A stretch of 64,000 nt of DNA. Origin: Eledone cirrhosa. Its lineage: Eukaryota. Both the position numbers and the translations under genes were made by a program. This document shows, in pieces, positions 5,977 to 64,000 of this stretch (positions are counted from its first letter, which is position 1; every line of letters starts with the position of its first letter). The stretch covers positions 14,818,001-14,882,000 of the forward strand of contig OZ024754.1 of the NCBI GenBank assembly GCA_964016885.1. Direction: 5' to 3'. The notes beneath the pieces are model-generated. The model saw only the letters and a program-made list of their open reading frames with translations, was not told the origin of the DNA and made no database searches.

Positions 5977-6036
5977 CATGTCGAACTGACGAGCTGCGGA
6001 AAGTTCTTACCCAGCGAAACACGCGTATTCGACATG
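5977..6036 (+). ncRNA. Canonical-core type I HHR (family I, within insertion ~5798-6170)
   Basis: caugucgaa-CUGACGA-gcug..cagc-GAAA-cacgcg-UA-uucgacaug; perfect 9-bp stem I; GUA triplet. Confidence 0.9.
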
Positions 6037-13698: not shown

Positions 13699-13737
13699 GC
13701 AATTGACGATGCATATAATGCTGAAACCGGTATTGTA
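13699..13737 (+). ncRNA. Very minimal HHR (family K), core UUGACGA
   Basis: gcaa-UUGACGA-ugca uauaa ugcu-GAAA-ccgg-UA-uugu; palindromic ACCGGU. Confidence 0.6.
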
Positions 13738-14581: not shown

Positions 14582-14985
<404 letters not shown>

Positions 14986-16208: not shown

Positions 16209-16400
16209 AAACAAAGGAATTGTGGTAAGGAACCAGATGGACCATAACTCACCAGAGTACTCAATACTTAGGGTAGTAGAGTGGGAAATAGGAAAAAGTA
16301 TGACCCCGACGGCAGAGCTCAAGCCGTTTCGACGGCTATTTCTGGACTAAATTAGAATTTTTAGCCTGGTGAATAAATACCCGAACTTTTGAAGGGGATA
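16209..16400 (-). mobile_element. Family E subfamily 3' fragment with HHR fold at 16303-16398 (core UUCAAAA)
   Basis: Homologous to 25673-25860. U3/A8 retained, G5 changed to C. Confidence 0.85.
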
Positions 16401-16424
16401 CTTCTTGTAGAAGCCATTTCTATA

Positions 16425-16470
<46 letters not shown>

Positions 16471-16472
<2 letters not shown>

Positions 16473-16645
16473 TATAGAAATGGCTTCTACAGGACTAGAA
16501 CTGTTTCATTCGGGAGAAATCACGAGAAAGCCGCTTCCTGATGATTTCTCCCGAATGAAACAGTTCTAGTCCTGTAGAAGACATTTCTATAAATATTTAT
16601 ACTCTGTTATGTATTGAGTACCTTACTTACTGTTGAACCCGAGAT

Positions 16646-22029: not shown

Positions 22030-22035
22030 TTCTAC

Positions 22036-22185
22036 ACGAAGGAAATGTGGTAAGGAACCAGATTGACCATAACGCACCAAAGTACTCAATACTTAGGGTA
22101 GTAGAGTGGGTAATAGGAACGAGTAGGACCCCGACGGCAGAGCTCAAGCCGTTTCGGCGGCTAATTCTGGGGTCCTACTCGTTCC

Positions 22186-22188
<3 letters not shown>
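22036..22188. mobile_element. Family E 3' fragment with short inverted arm
   Basis: Homologous to 25673-25810, plus inverted ggggtcctactcgttcctat; lies within (TA)n. Confidence 0.85.
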
Positions 22189-25621: not shown

Positions 25622-25674
<53 letters not shown>

Positions 25675-25765
25675 CGAAGGAAATGTGGTAAGGAACCAGG
25701 TGGACCATAACGCACCAAAGTACTCAATACTTGAGGTAGTAGAGTGGGTAATAGGAACCAGTAAG

Positions 25766-25859
25766 ACCCCGACAGCTGAGCTCAAGCCGTTTCGACGGCT
25801 AATTCTGGACTAAATGAAAATTTATCCTGGTATTTAAATAGCCGATCTTCTCAAGGGGT
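25766..25859 (-). ncRNA. Type I hammerhead ribozyme with U3-A8 variant core (family E)
   Basis: Minus strand reads acccc-UUGAGAA-ga(u)cggcua...uagccguc-GAAA-cggcu ugagcuc agcug-UC-ggggu. All three stems close; GUC cleavage triplet. Confidence 0.78.
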
Positions 25860-26959
25860 AATTCCATATATGGTCAAAGTGATTGTCAAAAATCAGTAGT
25901 AATTCTGTGGTTGCAAATTAGTAGGGGAGATGGTGGCTAAACCTGCCAGTAGGAGAAAGAGGGGAGGGGTGGAGTAGCCCCAATCAAGCGTTTGTAGTGC
26001 CAGCTACAGCTGGGCATGAGGTCAAAGAAGATACAGGGAAGGGGGAGGGGGAGGAAGTCGGAACGGTAGGTAGAACAATGGGGGGTAGAAATATATAGGA
26101 AAGAAAAAATACGTGTAAAGAAAAACAAATGAGTGTAAAGAAAAAAGTAAAGTAAATTAAATTCTACGACCTAGGTCTCAGGCTATTGTTAGGCTAGAAT
26201 AAATAAATAAATAAAGAAAGAAAGAAGTAAAGAAAGAAATAACGAAATAAGTAAAGGAACTAGGTGGGACGGATAAGGCGATGACCCTTTTAAGAGGTAC
26301 GTAAATGATACGGTGACGGGTCAACAAAAGGGGCCAAAATACTAAAGAGACTACCACGAAATAAACAATAAAGGTTTCCATCCCGGGCACAATTCCAGCA
26401 ACCACCCAGTGCCGCAAAGTGAACTAATACGAGATAATAATTCTGAGTCCCGGGAAAAATATATACTAATGCTAACTCTAAAGATCTAAAACAAGCTACA
26501 TGAAAGTTCGTACGAAGTAAAGGTAGAATACGGAAGAATAAATTCAGAATCCACCCCGCCCAAAAGAAAAGCGAAGAAAGAAATACTGAAACGAAAAAAT
26601 AAGGCATAAGTGCCACTAAGAAATATAGAGGGCACAGAGAATGGTGGGAGCGGTCGGAAAAAGGGGACAAGTATCCGGGGTCTAAACCAACTGCTATAAA
26701 GGGCGGAGTCCGCCAAATCTATCCTATACTAGGGGAGGGGGTGGGGGTACTAAGGCTACAAGGGGCCAAAGGGCAGCCTCGGGTGGGCGAGAAAAGACGC
26801 CGACAAAGGAGAAGAGCTGGGGTAGAAGGACTAAGGAGAGAGGGGGGAAGGAAGGAAATAAAGGAAGCGATAAAAGAATACAAAGAAGATCTTACGTCTC
26901 CCTTGGCAAGCAGGGGTTACCCATTGCAAAATCGGCAAGTGGGGTGTTATAGCCCTAGT

Positions 26960-29122
26960 CTACCCCCCCCCCCCCCCGGGGTCATTATGGGGTTTGAGGG
27001 CGAGGTAAGTCCTACGCAATCTATGTTTACATGCAGTAACCAGTTCATCTTTCTTGTTTAGGAGTTGGTCCGTCGAAAACAGCATTTGTAAAGTTTCCTC
27101 CGAGCATAAATTGCACGGACGGCGTCCTCCCGTGTAAGAATTGGCTCTGGACAGTAATCTCCAAGTGAGATCATAGGTGATGTTGTTGTCCTTGAGGTCC
27201 CATATGTGGCCCGAAAGTGTAGTGGCGTGACGCCGGGCCGGGTTTCGGAAGGTATGTCTATGTTGGTATAGCCGGGTCTTGAAGTCACATGCGGTAAGTC
27301 CTATATAGGCTTTGTTGGAGGTATCCGTCCTCACGTTGCACTGGTAGATCACATTACGGTCTCTGCATCTATTGTCGAGTGGGAAAATAGATCTATCCGG
27401 GCAGTTACACCGCCTGGTCGGTTCTCCACTGCTATTTAGGTTATTTCTGCCATCGGGGTTGAGTTTTTTGTTGTTAGAGGAGACGATGTTTTGTGCGAAG
27501 TTTGGTGTAGTGCTGTAAGAGAGTTTGATGGTATTTTTGTTAATTATGTTGTGGTAGCGGTGTTGTAATGGGAAGTATTTTTCAATGAGCCTAAAGAATA
27601 GTTTCCCGATGGGAGTTGTCACCTCTGCGTTGTGGGGAGGATTGAACCATGTTACATTGCGTGAGCGGCGGTGTCTCCTGCTGGTCCCGCTAATGGGAGC
27701 TGGACAGTAGGATATTTCCTCCCGGAAACCACTCCGCTTGAGGGCCTGGTTGTAATAAGGCGCATGTTCATCGAATATCCGCTCATTAGCTGACAAACGG
27801 GATATGCGGAGGGAGATGTTTTTGACCAGGTTGTTTGTGATGTTCCTAGGATGGTTTGATCGGCGGTGGATGTAGTGCAGATTGTCATTAGGTTTCCTGT
27901 ATGGGTAGTACAGGTCGTTTTCGAGGTCGAGGGTCACGTCCAGGAAGTTTACTCTGGTCAGGGACGTTTGTAGGGTTATTTTAAATCCCCAGTCGCGGAA
28001 GAATCTGATTAATTGTTTCCGGACCCGATCTGTACTACTGGGGTTGTACCCTTTAAGGGTAAGGAGCCCATCATCACGGTACAATCCACCACCGAAAGCA
28101 GGAAACATATCAGTGAGTTTGGCTATTAGGAATAATCCTATAAGATCTGTGACCTCCGCCGAATCCGTGGCGCCCATGCTGACGTCGAAGGGTGAGTCGG
28201 GAGCTCTTTTTATCCATTTAGAGTCGTCAAAGAGTAAGACTGTCTTCCTGGCGTGGAGGATGATTTCTCTTTCCTGGTCGGTGATGGGCACAAGTGTTTC
28301 GGCGAAGTCCAAGGCGGCAGTAAGTAGCGGTAAGGTGATTGAAGCATAGTAGCTCTCTATGTCGAACTGTATGAATTTAGTTTCTCGTTTATCCTCCATA
28401 TTGCTGAACCAGGAGATTACTTCCTGGGTGTTGATCCATAGGCTAAGTCGGGTGTGTTGCTTGACTTTTGGTATCACGCGGTCTAGGATTTTTTTGCTGA
28501 TTCTCCCTATGTCGGACTTCGTTGGGTTAATAAGCCTGATAGAGGGTTTACGGTCAAAATCGGATTTATGGTCCTTCAGTGTGAAGTATGGTGTCCGTGG
28601 GTCTAGAGGTTCCGTGCGGTCGGCGACCCCGAGGCTGGAGGTGATTTGTTGTCCATCTCGATTTATGTCCTCGATGCAAGATAGGTTGGCCTTTTTATAG
28701 GTGGAGTTTAGGCTGCTCCTGATCAGTGTGTGGTATCTGTCAGGGTTGACAAAGTATAGGTTCCCAGTTTTATCCGAATGCACCATGATGTCATTTGTGT
28801 TATCATACTCTGTTAGGTTGCTACGGAGTTTTTGTAGGAATCGGTTGTGTCTGGGTTTAAATTTAATGTTCTTGACCAGTTGGAAGAGGTCGTTCTCGAA
28901 GGGTGCGAGCAAGGGGTTCAGGGGCGGAGATTTGTAGGTAATAAATCCGAATCTCTCCTTGGTGCCGAAGTCTTGGTTGTCGCAATATCTGTCATAGAAA
29001 AAAGTTCTCCATCTAAGTCTTTTCGCAAATAGATCGATTTTTTGCGTGAGCATCCGAAGGTAAAGTTTTTTCGGTGGGATTGGGATGTTCTTGGTAGAGA
29101 AGTCAATGTTGTGTTTTCGCAT
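26960..29122 (-). CDS. Penelope-like element polyprotein (RT + C-terminal GIY-YIG endonuclease), about 720 aa, probably Hydra-type clade
   Basis: Uninterrupted ORF. RT motifs FIQFDIESYYASI, FDVSMGATDSAEVTDLIG, LYRDDGL, NFLDVTLDL; thumb YPYRKPN..YIHRRSNHP; WFNPP; CNC linker; GIY-YIG VIYQC..AYIGLT..FKTRLYQH; C-terminal CNLC and CKH. Start placed at MRKHNIDFSTKNIPIP because the ATG at 29224 lies in an adjoining, unrelated inverted repeat. Confidence 0.93.
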   Translation of the reverse strand: MRKHNIDFSTKNIPIPPKKLYLRMLTQKIDLFAKRLRWRTFFYDRYCDNQDFGTKERFGFITYKSPPLNPLLAPFENDLFQLVKNIKFKPRHNRFLQKLRSNLTEYDNTNDIMVHSDKTGNLYFVNPDRYHTLIRSSLNSTYKKANLSCIEDINRDGQQITSSLGVADRTEPLDPRTPYFTLKDHKSDFDRKPSIRLINPTKSDIGRISKKILDRVIPKVKQHTRLSLWINTQEVISWFSNMEDKRETKFIQFDIESYYASITLPLLTAALDFAETLVPITDQEREIILHARKTVLLFDDSKWIKRAPDSPFDVSMGATDSAEVTDLIGLFLIAKLTDMFPAFGGGLYRDDGLLTLKGYNPSSTDRVRKQLIRFFRDWGFKITLQTSLTRVNFLDVTLDLENDLYYPYRKPNDNLHYIHRRSNHPRNITNNLVKNISLRISRLSANERIFDEHAPYYNQALKRSGFREEISYCPAPISGTSRRHRRSRNVTWFNPPHNAEVTTPIGKLFFRLIEKYFPLQHRYHNIINKNTIKLSYSTTPNFAQNIVSSNNKKLNPDGRNNLNSSGEPTRRCNCPDRSIFPLDNRCRDRNVIYQCNVRTDTSNKAYIGLTACDFKTRLYQHRHTFRNPARRHATTLSGHIWDLKDNNITYDLTWRLLSRANSYTGGRRPCNLCSEETLQMLFSTDQLLNKKDELVTACKHRLRRTYLALKPHNDPGGGGG

Positions 29123-29215
29123 GGTGCGGGTGAAATGAATTGGGCTTAGCGGAAAAGTCTGGATACGGCGTGGTAAGGTCGGAAAGTGCTCTACTACGGG
29201 GGTAGGAGCTAGATA

Positions 29216-29494
29216 ACGTACCATAAATATTGAGCAACCTTTATGTAAAGGTTGCTCAATATTTATGGTACGTCAAAATTATTTATAAAACTGTTTATAT
29301 ATTGTATTTTATCTGAAGAAGGCATGCCATATTTTTAATATGGTATCCCCGAAATATGTATAATGAAATAAATATGGTTTTATAAATATAGTTTCCATTT
29401 GTTTAATATCGTATATCTACTCCAAAACTTGTCGAGTGCTTTATATCAGTTATAAAATATTTACTTGTAACCCAACAATTTTAAATAAAACTTT

Positions 29495-29497
<3 letters not shown>
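29216..29497 (+). mobile_element. Family A PLE-type 3' fragment with a perfect 28-bp 5' hairpin (29216-29273)
   Basis: Homologous to 35926-36090, 38647-38918, 46693-46965 and 53823-54045; ends cttttgca(TA)n. Confidence 0.85.
29305..29370 (+). ncRNA. Minimal type I HHR (family A)
   Basis: uauuuuau-CUGAAGA-stem II (augccauauu/aauaugguau)-GAAA-uaugua-UA-augaaaua. Confidence 0.8.
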
Positions 29498-30379
<882 letters not shown>

Positions 30380-35983: not shown

Positions 35984-36048
35984 TATTTTGTCTGATGAAA
36001 GCACACCATAATTTAACTTGGTGTCCTTGAAATATGTATAATGAAATA
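35984..36048 (+). ncRNA. Minimal type I HHR (family A; element 35926-36090)
   Basis: uauuuugu-CUGAUGA-aag cacacca..uggugu ccuu-GAAA-uaugua-UA-augaaaua. Confidence 0.82.
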
Positions 36049-38096: not shown

Positions 38097-38520
38097 ACTG
38101 AACCGAGACCTTTGGCGGTACTCAGTAACAGAGAAGACCCGCCTTGCCAGTAGGCATCTCTAACAAAATACACCCCGTCCCGCCACCACCCCCACCCCAT
38201 CCACACCACCCCGTTCTATGTAAAGTTATGTTGGTGCCGCGCCATCCAGGCCGAAACAAATGAGATGGTGTAGGTGTCACGACAAAAAAACACACAGTCC
38301 ACGCTGTAATGTGGCCGTGTAGGCAACACGGTAAAAACCTCCCAGACCCACACTGTAAATGTGGTTGGTGTTAGGAAGGGCATCCAACTGTAGAAAACCT
38401 GCCAGACAGTCCTATGCGAGCAAGACAATCACTCTTGCCTCAAGTGGAACTACCCCCGTCCAAACCCATGCAAGCGTGGAACACGGACGTTAAACGTTGA
38501 TGATGATGATGATGATGATG
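38097..38520 (+). mobile_element. RTE 3' fragment, same family
   Basis: Reverse complement of 31376-31937; (GAT)n tail. Confidence 0.85.
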
Positions 38521-49210: not shown

Positions 49211-49225
49211 GAGAGAGAGAGAGAT

Positions 49226-49426
49226 AACAAAGAGGGTGTGGTAAGATACCAGGTGGACCATAACGCACCAGGGTAATCGATACTTAGGGTAGTAGAGTGG
49301 GTAATATGAAAAGATTCAGGACCCCGACGGCAGAGCTCCGGACGTTTCGACAGCTAGATCCGAACTCAGTTCGGATCTAGTTGTCGAAACGACCGGAGCT
49401 CAGCCGTCGGATCCTGAATCTTTTCA
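49226..49426. mobile_element. Diverged family E 3' fragment with inverted arm
   Basis: gtggtaag..ggaccataacgcacc..agagctc..gtttcgac, followed by an inverted copy. Confidence 0.8.
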
Positions 49427-49442
49427 TATATATATACATACA

Positions 49443-53595: not shown

Positions 53596-53599
53596 ATAT

Positions 53600-53737
53600 A
53601 ACAAAGGTATTGTGGTGAGGAACCAGATGGACCATAACGATCCAGAGTACTCAATACTTAGTGTAGTAGAGTGGGAAATAGGAAAAAGTATGACCCCGAC
53701 GGCAGAGCTCAAGCCGTTTCGACGGCTATTTCTGGAC
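53600..53737 (-). mobile_element. Family E 3' fragment (further pieces at 55067-55137 on - and 61739-61796 on +)
   Basis: Direct homology to 16209-16350. Confidence 0.85.
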
Positions 53738-53863
53738 ATGAAAACAGGGAGAAAGAGACGATTATGAGGAAGAAAAATATATTCTTTTCCTTTTTTGTAT
53801 ATATATATATATATATATATATAAGGGTATGTTAATATTTATTTATAAAACTGCTCTATATTA

Positions 53864-55010: not shown

Positions 55011-55067
<57 letters not shown>

Positions 55068-55158
55068 ACGGAGGAAATGTTGTAAGGAACCAGGTGGACC
55101 ATAACGCACCAAAGTACTCAATACTTAGGGTAGTAGAATATATATATATATATATATA

Positions 55159-60061: not shown

Positions 60062-60463
60062 AGAACAAAAGATGGTTAAAGGAGTTCCATGTATTTTATT
60101 ATGCGCATTTCAAAAACAAACATCATCATGCAATAATATTTGTGTTTTCATCAGATAAAACAGGAGGACATGATATGAAGGCTAAAAAACACTTGTGGAT
60201 AGTTCAGTTTTAAATCAACATATGAACTATCCACAAGTGTTTTTTAGCCTTCATATCATGTCCTCCTGTTTTATCTGATGAAAACACAAATATTATTGCA
60301 TGATGATATTTGTTTTTGAAATGCGCATAATAAAATACATGGAACTCCTTTAACCATCTTTTGTTCTTATATATTATGTATACTCCAGTCCTACAAACTG
60401 TAGAGTGCTTCTTATCCGATATCTGCATTGCTTTATTGTACTACAATAAAACTCACCTCCTAC

Positions 60464-61600: not shown

Positions 61601-61791
61601 TATATATATATATAAGTGGTTACACAACAGTTAGTTCACCATGCCGAGAACAAACTGTTGTGTAACCACTTCTACCTAACTCGTCCCATGGACGGATATT
61701 TCCTTGCAGTGTTCCACCACTATATATACATATATATATCAGAATTAGCCGTCGAAACGGCTTGAGCTCAGCCGTCGGGGTCCTACTCGTT

Positions 61792-61859
<68 letters not shown>

Positions 61860-62435: not shown

Positions 62436-62957
62436 AGAACTCAATGAAATATTTAACCATTTCATAAGTAAGTTGATGTTTCAAACATTGTATGTATGAT
62501 ATGTATGGACCCTTTAACTACAGATGGAGTCATAGGCTCGCCTTGTCTTGGACCTTTTTAACTTCGTAGAACTAACCTCTATTCCCCGGTCTGAACACAA
62601 GCGAATCCTTCCGGAGACAGAGAGGAAGATTGAGAGAGAGAGAGAAAGGAAGTGAGAAAGAAGAAGAATCGTTGCCAGTACTAGACTGGTAGATTTTTTA
62701 TCGACCTTGAATCGATGAAAGACAAAGTAGACCTCGGTGGAATTTGAACTAAGAAAACAGAGAGCTGAAACGAATACAACAAAGTATTCTATCTGACGTT
62801 CTAACGACTCTGCCAATTCACCGCCTTTTAATATAAATATGAACGTTTTAAAATGAGCAGTTATGTATGATATGATGAGCCGCGGTTTGAAACGAGTGTC
62901 AAAATGGTTAATATGATTCATGAATTCTAATTATCATCTCAACATGTCTTCCTGTGT

Positions 62958-64000
62958 CTTTCGTTTTTACCGTTGCCATGGGGACCAATACACTTCTCGT
63001 TTTTGCCATTGCCATGGTGACCAATACACTTCTCGTTTTTACTATTGCCATAGGGACCAGTAGACTTCTCGTTTTTACCATTGCCATGGGGACCAATACA
63101 CTTCTCGTTTTTGCCATTGCCATGGTGACCAATACACTTCTCGTTTTTACCATTGCCATGGGGACCAATACACTTCTCGTTTTTGCCATTGCCATGGTGA
63201 CCAATACACTTCTCGTTTTTACCATTGCCATGGGGACCAATACACTTCTCGTTTTTGCCATTGCCATGGGGACCAGTACACTTCTCGTTTTTGCCATTGC
63301 CATGGAGGCCAATACACTTCTCGTTTTTACTATTGCCATAGGGACCAGTACACTTCGCGTTTTTACCATTGCCATGGGGACCAGTACACTTCTCGTTTTT
63401 GCCATTGCCATGGTGACCAATACACTTCTCGTTTTTACCATTGCCATGGGGACCAGTACACTTCTCGTTTTTGCCATTGCCATGGTGACCAGTACACTTC
63501 TCGTTTTTACCATTGCCATGGTGACCAATACACTTCTCATTTTTACCATTGCCATGGAGGCCAATACACTTCTCGTTTTTACTATTGCCATAGGGACCAG
63601 TACACTTCTCGTTTTTACCATTGCCATGGGGACCAATACACTTCTCGTTTTTGCCATTGCCATGGGGACCAGTACACTTCTCGTTTTTACCATTGCCATG
63701 GGGACCAATACACTTCTCGTTTTTGCCATTGCCATGGTGACCAATACACTTCTCGTTTTTACCATTGCCATGGGGACCAATACACTTCTCGTTTTTGCCA
63801 TTGCCATGGTGACCAATACACTTCTCGTTTTTACCATTGCCATGGGGACCAATACACTTCTCGTTTTTGCCATTGCCATGGGGACCAGTACACTTCTCGT
63901 TTTTGCCATTGCCATGGAGGCCAATACACTTCTCGTTTTTACTATTGCCATAGGGACCAGTACACTTCGCGTTTTTACCATTGCCATGGGGACCAGTACA
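62958..64000. repeat. 36-bp satellite cttctcgtttttaccattgccatggggaccaataca, running off the window
   Basis: Tandem array with recurrent variants. Confidence 0.97.

Follow-up and report, generated by a model that had tools for sequence, protein, structure and literature searches.

In the Cercyon Penelope-like elements (PLEs) of Schistosoma mansoni, about 1,300 hammerhead hits carry U3-A8 in place of the C3-G8 core pair (Cervera and De la Pena 2014, PMC4209133). As described in that paper, the Cercyon motif is of type I, with a stem I of 4-5 bp, a long stem II opening on G10.1-C11.1 and a palindromic stem III region, and it is a relative of the minimal motifs that lack a real helix III. PLE hammerheads are described there and elsewhere as slow and dimer-dependent (PMC4209133; PMC6765202), and the tertiary contact between stem I and loop II is often absent from them (PMC4209133; PMC6155905). 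Covariation from C3-G8 to U3-A8 is also on record for several natural ribozymes in Perreault et al. 2011 (PMC3088659), who cite earlier in vitro activity; the active core variants of that study come from phage and bacterial contexts, and its available text mentions neither a PLE link nor a dimer palindrome.

According to Craig et al. 2021 (PMC8557442), Hydra-clade PLEs are recognised by their DKT motif, CxCx5C linker and insertion into (TA)n. The search in that work used a canonical descriptor plus relaxed ones, and all 25 families with a tabulated hammerhead (27 are listed) have CUGANGA with C3-G8. In the Poseidon element PAc of Anolis (Frangieh et al. 2024, PMC11167929), the hammerhead cleaves only with the element's protein, and insertion in vitro is independent of cleavage.

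Here we describe a hammerhead motif in the window, the 64,000-nt stretch of Eledone cirrhosa DNA that was analysed, which combines features of these systems. It shares with Cercyon the U3-A8 pair in a PLE, the type I topology, the length of stem I, the long stem II with G10.1-C11.1 and the palindromic stem III region. Unlike Cercyon, it has a stem III of 5-6 bp with a 7-9-nt loop, a 37-nt loop II and a Hydra-clade host. With the published Hydra-clade elements the host shares the 3'-terminal type I hammerhead, the (TA)n insertion, the DKT motif, a putative C-terminal endonuclease, a tail on one end and inverted truncated copies (PMC8557442), whereas in the hammerheads tabulated for that clade stem III does not exceed 4 bp and the loops are short. 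Like Poseidon PAc it carries a PLE hammerhead, and both elements have two ends, with a tail lying between two start sites of reverse transcription; in contrast, the PAc motif is a minimal one with C3-G8 that overlaps the start of the ORF (PMC11167929).

In the literature searched, largely open-access papers, we found no natural C3·A8 class and no U3-A8 in Hydra elements. The core variant is already known and by itself will not surprise specialists, and the word "rare" in the original prediction, which was made from sequence alone, overstated the case in view of the roughly 1,300 hits published for one genome in 2014 (PMC4209133). The occurrence of U3-A8 in the Hydra clade is new as far as our searches reach. 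Coordinates of all features are collected in Table 1.

Table 1 Features of the hammerhead motif, its host element, related copies and neighbouring repeats (window coordinates).
Feature	Position	Strand	Basis or remark
Type I hammerhead motif, U3-A8 core	25766..25859	minus	sequence, folding, descriptor scan
Stem I, 5' strand	25855..25859, pairs with 25770-25766	minus	pair probabilities 0.57-0.98 in 94-330-nt contexts
Core positions 3-9, UUGAGAA	25848..25854	minus	U3 = 25854, G5 = 25852, N7 = 25850, A8 = 25849
Stem II and loop of ~37 nt with inner hairpin	25794..25847	minus	folding
G12-A13-A14, stem III (5-6 bp) with GAGCUC palindrome, U16.1, C17	25771..25793	minus	
PLE ORF, 720 aa: TERT-like RT and putative C-terminal GIY-YIG-type endonuclease	26960..29122	minus	Hydra clade features
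5' UTR with hairpin resembling the tail hairpin	29123..29218	minus	starts with a 6-nt word recurring at the element 3' end
3' UTR, 1.1 kb	25860..26959	minus	single copy in window; X4 contig spans 25789-26010 with 2 differences
3' "tail" between two alternative element ends	25671..25750	minus	each end followed by (TA)n
(TA)n target microsatellite	25627..25670		
Decayed copy holding both halves; another repeat joined upstream	16210..16397	minus	U3 and A8 kept, G5C
Fold-back copy, only 3' half of hammerhead in both arms, tail on one arm	14694..14890		
3'-half copy with short inverted arm	22035..22188	minus	arm stops at reference 25768-25770
Fold-back 3'-half copy, diverged subfamily	49225..49431		stem III weakened, GAGCUC kept
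3'-half copy with tail	53599..53744	minus	
Tail-only copy	55066..55137	minus	
3'-half copy without tail	61739..61799	plus	ends at the 25751 end
Second repeat family	29257-29500; near 35987, 38727, 46771, 53867 (plus); 46610 (minus)		
Third repeat family	25007-24953, 3335-3281, 60154-60100 (minus); 60275-60329 (plus)		

Anatomy and folding of the motif

Three stems surround the core and both the 5' and the 3' end lie in stem I, the arrangement of a type I hammerhead. Stem I comprises one A-U and four C-G pairs, and stem II opens with G10.1-C11.1 (25847/25794) and continues beyond a 2x1 internal loop into six further base pairs (25844-25839 with 25796-25801). The letters U3, U4, G5, A6, G7, A8 and A9 are followed on the 3' side of stem II by G12, A13, A14 and A15.1 (GAAA, 25793-25790). 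Stem III can form six pairs, one of them a G·U (25788/25774), which enclose the palindrome UGAGCUCA in a loop of 7-9 nt. With U16.1 at 25772 and C17 at 25771, the predicted cut falls between 25771 and 25770. Every invariant base (U4, G5, A6, A9, G12, A13, A14, A15.1-U16.1 and H17) is present in this copy; only the C3-G8 of the strict consensus is absent, replaced by the U3-A8 Watson-Crick pair.

This three-stem structure is the minimum-energy fold of the 94-mer. The fold with GAAA, GUC and a UUGAGAA core, the extended stem II and the predicted cut site all agree with the original prediction, as does the reading of U3-A8 as a compensatory pair, which is a published natural covariation (PMC4209133, PMC3088659). 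The pairs of the hammerhead have probabilities of 0.47-0.98 in contexts of 94-230 nt and of 0.38-0.73 in a 330-nt context; in 601 nt, stems I and III drop to about 0. The stability of the fold is ordinary (z = -0.96; 32 of 200 shuffles of the 94-mer are as stable). A three-stem descriptor requiring at least 4 bp in stem III had a single match in the window; 30 versions of the window shuffled block-wise by dinucleotides gave one match in total, a chance rate of 0.03 per 64 kb. The motif at this position is therefore beyond chance, despite its ordinary fold stability.

Scanning with the Rfam hammerhead families gave no match at the gathering threshold and none at E values up to 10. The same gathering-threshold scan also missed canonical-core motifs of other families in the window, and its failure here thus cannot be attributed to U3-A8. 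The expectation that CUGANGA searches would pass over this element holds for a strict descriptor, which would miss the motif. As for the metazoan minimal hammerheads, defined by a helix III that is absent or 1-2 bp long, the stem III found here is too long at 5-6 bp, while the palindromic, dimer-capable stem III or loop 3 of that class is represented by GAGCUC. A 20-nt pattern derived from the motif had no match in viral and prokaryote contigs.

The host is a Hydra-type Penelope-like element

The motif lies near the 3' end of a unit-length PLE of 3.55 kb that runs on the minus strand from about 29218 to about 25671. Of 8,000 candidates scored, 2,054 are homologues of its ORF; most of them share about 40% identity with it and have a length of about 700 aa. 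In the predicted structure (mean pLDDT 82) the three top Foldseek matches are telomerases, the best at E = 1.7e-8, and the reverse transcriptase has a YRDD motif. A Pfam scan of the ORF returned no family and a sequence search of the PDB no match. In the C-terminal domain a VIY...YIG...R...H...E pattern is visible by eye, with no direct profile or fold match there; the best homologue of the ORF carries PF01541 (GIY-YIG).

The residues D117-K118-T119, a DKT in place of DKG, are invariant in 14 of 14 alignment rows. Of the CxCx5C linker, C572 and C574 are present and the third cysteine is Phe580 in this copy; it is a cysteine in all 11 full-length homologues aligned, from an alignment that took 13 of 120 listed homologues, two of which end before the linker. 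On the DKT motif, the CxCx5C-type linker and the insertion into (TA)n, the element is assigned to the Hydra clade. The family resembles Hydra-1_Obim, which like it is listed without a pLTR (PMC8557442), but is a different family in a comparison made by eye, which took in the N-terminus. The element is also long for the clade: 3.55 kb with a 1.1-kb 3' UTR against mostly less than 3 kb in the published Hydra families (PMC8557442), and a tail of about 80 nt against a published 30-40 bp.

An upstream ATG at 29224 lies inside the fold-back arm of another repeat (29216-29273), and most homologues start level with Met 29122; since the former ATG belongs to that fold-back, we take 29122 as the ORF start. 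The element had been called intact, which is correct for the open frame and less so for the protein, given Phe580 and the spurious ATG. The ORF closes on about 14 consecutive G (26961-26975), which encode a poly-Gly C-terminus just before the stop and may differ in number from copy to copy.

The 3' end of the element takes two forms, at about 25751 and at about 25671, and loose ends leading into (TA)n recur at 25751 and 25677 in all four read runs that we sampled. Neither a pLTR nor a tandem arrangement was found: this is a lone unit, with only the 6-nt word common to both ends, which is weak by itself as three of its six letters may be the neighbouring repeat's. A metagenome relative, L001, has the order hammerhead, hairpin, hairpin, ATG, that of a tandem (permuted) junction. 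It is one of eight loci found in a metagenome scan for PLE relatives, all distant (34-48% identity); six of them (L001-L003 and L005-L007) have C3-G8 hammerhead-like motifs 3' of the ORF, L004 and L008 have no recognisable hammerhead, and none of the eight matches the family's sequence model.

Hairpins with a CUC...GAG(C/U)ACU motif occur in the tail (25720-25745, minus) and in the 5' UTR (29185-29212, minus). Similar motifs are found twice in L001 (60-150) and once in the tail of Hydra-2_Amil, and the hairpin may be a conserved signal of the Hydra clade for binding of the reverse transcriptase or for its start.

Most related copies in the window keep only the 3' half

Eight loci of the family lie in the window: the full element, the decayed copy at 16304, five that hold only the 3' half of the hammerhead and one that is tail only. 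The whole motif thus occurs in two copies. In the decayed one (16304-16398) the core is UUCAAAA, with G5C, and stem II has a G·G mismatch. Beyond it, another repeat forms a near-perfect fold-back at 16420-16600, and part of that fold-back is joined 5' of the decayed hammerhead.

The five 3'-half loci span the cut site and lack the 5' core, which implies that they were copied from uncut RNA unable to self-cleave in cis. Their upstream boundary is narrow: the four short arms that align best have their 5' ends at reference positions 25807-25810 and a fifth arm has its own at 25820, all in loop II, and 10 of 11 opposite-strand joints in reads have one side at 25801-25823. Stalling at the hairpin and a transcript start there would both explain this boundary. 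All nine window arms that hold stem III keep GAGCUC, even where stem III is weakened. One inverted arm (22169-22188) ends, as one made from cut RNA would, at the predicted cut site; this is a single case with a 2-nt ambiguity.

The excess of 3' halves is taken from the window's own loci; summed contig depth falls likewise across loop II but is no copy number. A drop of about 40-fold in raw-read depth across loop II in run X17 was considered as further evidence and rejected, as the restriction (RAD) library explains part of it: five of the six read-end peaks listed for that run sit on AATT sites.

U3-A8 is the majority form, beside a C3·A8 class

To sample the family beyond the window we used four public read runs (X1, X4, X6 and X17, of 19 listed) under three species labels, tallied at thresholds of 80% likeness and 3% share. 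At position 3 (25854), C was found in 60 of 354 raw reads of X17, from 19 start places, the other 294 not being C, in what is a RAD library. In contig depth, which is no copy number and in which diverged copies are clipped in loop II, the share of C was 24% in X1 (29 contigs) and, from a single contig in each run, 39% in X4 and 28% in X6. Among the rows listed for the four runs, C was the only alternative letter tallied at this position; 41 of the 81 variant rows stand outside that list, and minor G5 changes or A8 transversions may lie there. U3 is accordingly the majority letter in all four runs, at 61-83% by run.

At position 8, G8 (a plus-strand T>C change) was absent from the tallies of all four runs among the rows listed. 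A quirk of the tool was considered as the source of this absence and rejected, as the 43 distinct differences between window copies include no sense A>G. The absence is further supported as real by one X4 contig, whose six differences could all be assigned without 25849. We conclude that U3-A8 is the majority form of the family and not decay. The family-level reading of the original prediction stands on these runs, in which the CUGANGA consensus that would have spoken against it was not seen. The witness first offered for it, the 16304 copy, has U3 and A8, but it is a weak one, since G5 is lost from it and its stem II is mismatched, changes that the original prediction does not mention.

The second class combines C3 with A8 and amounts to 17-39% by run, under all three species labels examined. 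In X4, the C3·A8 contig (six differences, none at position 8) has a depth of 22.1 against 26.1 for a near-identical form, and two subfamily backgrounds carry C3 (X4 record 15 and a contig of depth 8.24 in X6). The sizeable share of this mismatch class argues for weak selection on catalysis. The original prediction contained neither this class nor the absence of the 5' half from most copies.

Stem III also varies. The G·U of the focal copy is a minority state, with G15.3-C16.3 in 82% of raw reads, and the sixth pair is lost in 37% of reads, leaving 5 bp. The stem had been described as a full 5-bp helix around GAGCUC; the palindrome is as stated, while the length applies to that share of reads and up to six pairs are available in the focal copy.

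Substitutions in 25671-25860 and its copies are strand-biased: sense A>G is absent from the 43 differences between window copies and from the tallies of the four runs, in contrast to frequent A>T, T>C and C>T changes.

A candidate mechanism and its alternatives

On balance we lean towards a type I hammerhead that would slowly cut tandem or read-through transcripts after 25771, with dimerisation assisting. A tandem array or a read-through transcript carrying the element's 3' end would yield an RNA that folds in this way and is cut after C17, probably slowly. Two copies would mostly pair through stem III and the GAGCUC palindrome into a double hammerhead; the computed homodimer is the classic form of that structure, at -61.9 kcal/mol against -45.4 for two monomers, 16.5 better. 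Unlike in minimal PLE hammerheads, a stem III of 5-6 bp should permit the monomer fold too. Cutting within a tandem array would produce a 5' end about 190 nt ahead of the next unit's ATG, whereas a lone copy such as the focal element would just be shortened by about 100 nt. Insertion probably benefits from cleavage but does not require it.

In favour of this mechanism, the core of the focal copy is canonical everywhere except at the covaried positions 3 and 8, and the predicted hammerhead is placed near the element's 3' end, as in Hydra hammerheads. The published U3-A8 covariation, the U3 majority in all four runs with no G8 tallied, the retention of GAGCUC in every arm with stem III and the inverted arm ending at the cut site also speak for it. 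Against it, C3·A8 is common, and a mismatch at 3-8 is expected to cripple cleavage: a G8C change costs 10^5-fold (PMC8495972), and C3·A8 would be predicted to behave in kind. Five of the eight loci in the window appear to derive from uncut RNA without the 5' core, and the fold, of ordinary stability, disappears in the 601-nt context. Mutating the hammerhead of the Anolis PLE had no effect on insertion in vitro, and RNA ends at the cut site were not found (PMC11167929).

Much of this would also be expected if the motif were hammerhead-derived and catalysis nearly dispensable, a possibility that we take seriously but consider doubtful. Position 3 would then have drifted between U and C after G8 changed to A, and, with a doubt no smaller, the conserved 3' half (stem III, palindrome and tail hairpin) would serve as a dimerisation or protein-binding signal near the reverse-transcription starts. 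The spread of C3·A8 over species labels and subfamily backgrounds fits such drift, as do the G5C of the only other window copy with a 5' core, the predominance of 3' halves and the insertion without cleavage of the Anolis element in vitro (PMC11167929). The U3 majority, however, fits selection that restores the pair, the focal copy retains all other core bases with stems I and II complete, and C3 adjoins a C-run, where repeated slippage is plausible.

A bolder version, which we think unlikely, would make the family a hammerhead that switches its 3-8 pair and has amplified the C3·A8 mismatch beside U3-A8 under several species labels, with most genomic copies starting inside loop II and encoding just the substrate half. 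The classes could then act as paired or split ribozymes, a U3-A8 partner cutting the others or dimerising with them through GAGCUC. If it were true, the family would offer an experiment of nature on whether a PLE hammerhead has to cut.

A hammerhead split into two strands at loop II is a classic laboratory format. Very improbably, the short copies would supply the substrate strand of such a split ribozyme, to be cut in trans by full-length transcripts or to dimerise with them; that strand, no more credible as a part of the scheme, would consist of the 3' arm of stem II, GAAA, stem III, GUC and the 3' arm of stem I. The clustering of short-arm 5' ends and of opposite-strand joints inside loop II is what one would expect of it, but fold-back copies would bury the strand in their own hairpin, and the boundary is more simply accounted for if reverse transcription stalls or if a transcript begins in loop II.

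We give still less credence to a shifted register, in which N7 is deleted, 25850 is G8 and the next A is inserted. Position 3 would then form a U3·G8 wobble, or C3-G8 in the minority, which would render the C3 class canonical at positions 3 and 8. A8 is kept in the loose-end consensus of the diverged subfamily, however, where N7 is G or C, and N7 is A in the 16304 copy; such variation at 25850 is expected of N7 and not of G8, and with A8 constant it fixes the core register. Chance resemblance within a structured 3' UTR, to which the unremarkable folding z-score and the missing Rfam match might point, is most improbable given the descriptor's rate in shuffled windows and the agreement of position and anatomy with Hydra-clade hammerheads.

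The motif extends the U3-A8 core to the Hydra clade and carries a warning that strict CUGANGA descriptors undercount PLE hammerheads. Within one family, U3-A8, C3·A8, G5C and 3'-half-only copies form a natural allelic series that bears on what PLE hammerheads do; comparing the classes by copy age and ORF integrity would tell whether selection acts on catalysis.

Neighbouring repeats

Other repeats in the window carry hammerhead-like motifs as well. A second short family has a canonical C3-G8 type I motif (CUGANGA...GAAAUAU), with six cores, and ends in (TA)n; one of its copies lies directly against the 5' end of the focal ORF and contains the fold-back from which the ATG at 29224 derives. A third family has a canonical core with a palindromic stem III (AUGCGCAU), four cores and fold-back copies. 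Two single motifs on the plus strand lie at 5986-6027 and 13703-13732; one of the two is canonical with a 9-bp stem I, and the other has U3·G8 and a palindromic ACCGGU.

At the window end (62908-63987, minus), a 359-aa ORF in DNA of ordinary composition gave no tblastn match to the PLE protein. The sequence at 38330-38520 is SINE-like, presumably of a type present in octopus genomes. Upstream of the element, a direct repeat of 182 bp (29527-29708 and 30016-30197) is 96% identical between its two copies and is separated from the element by (TA)n.
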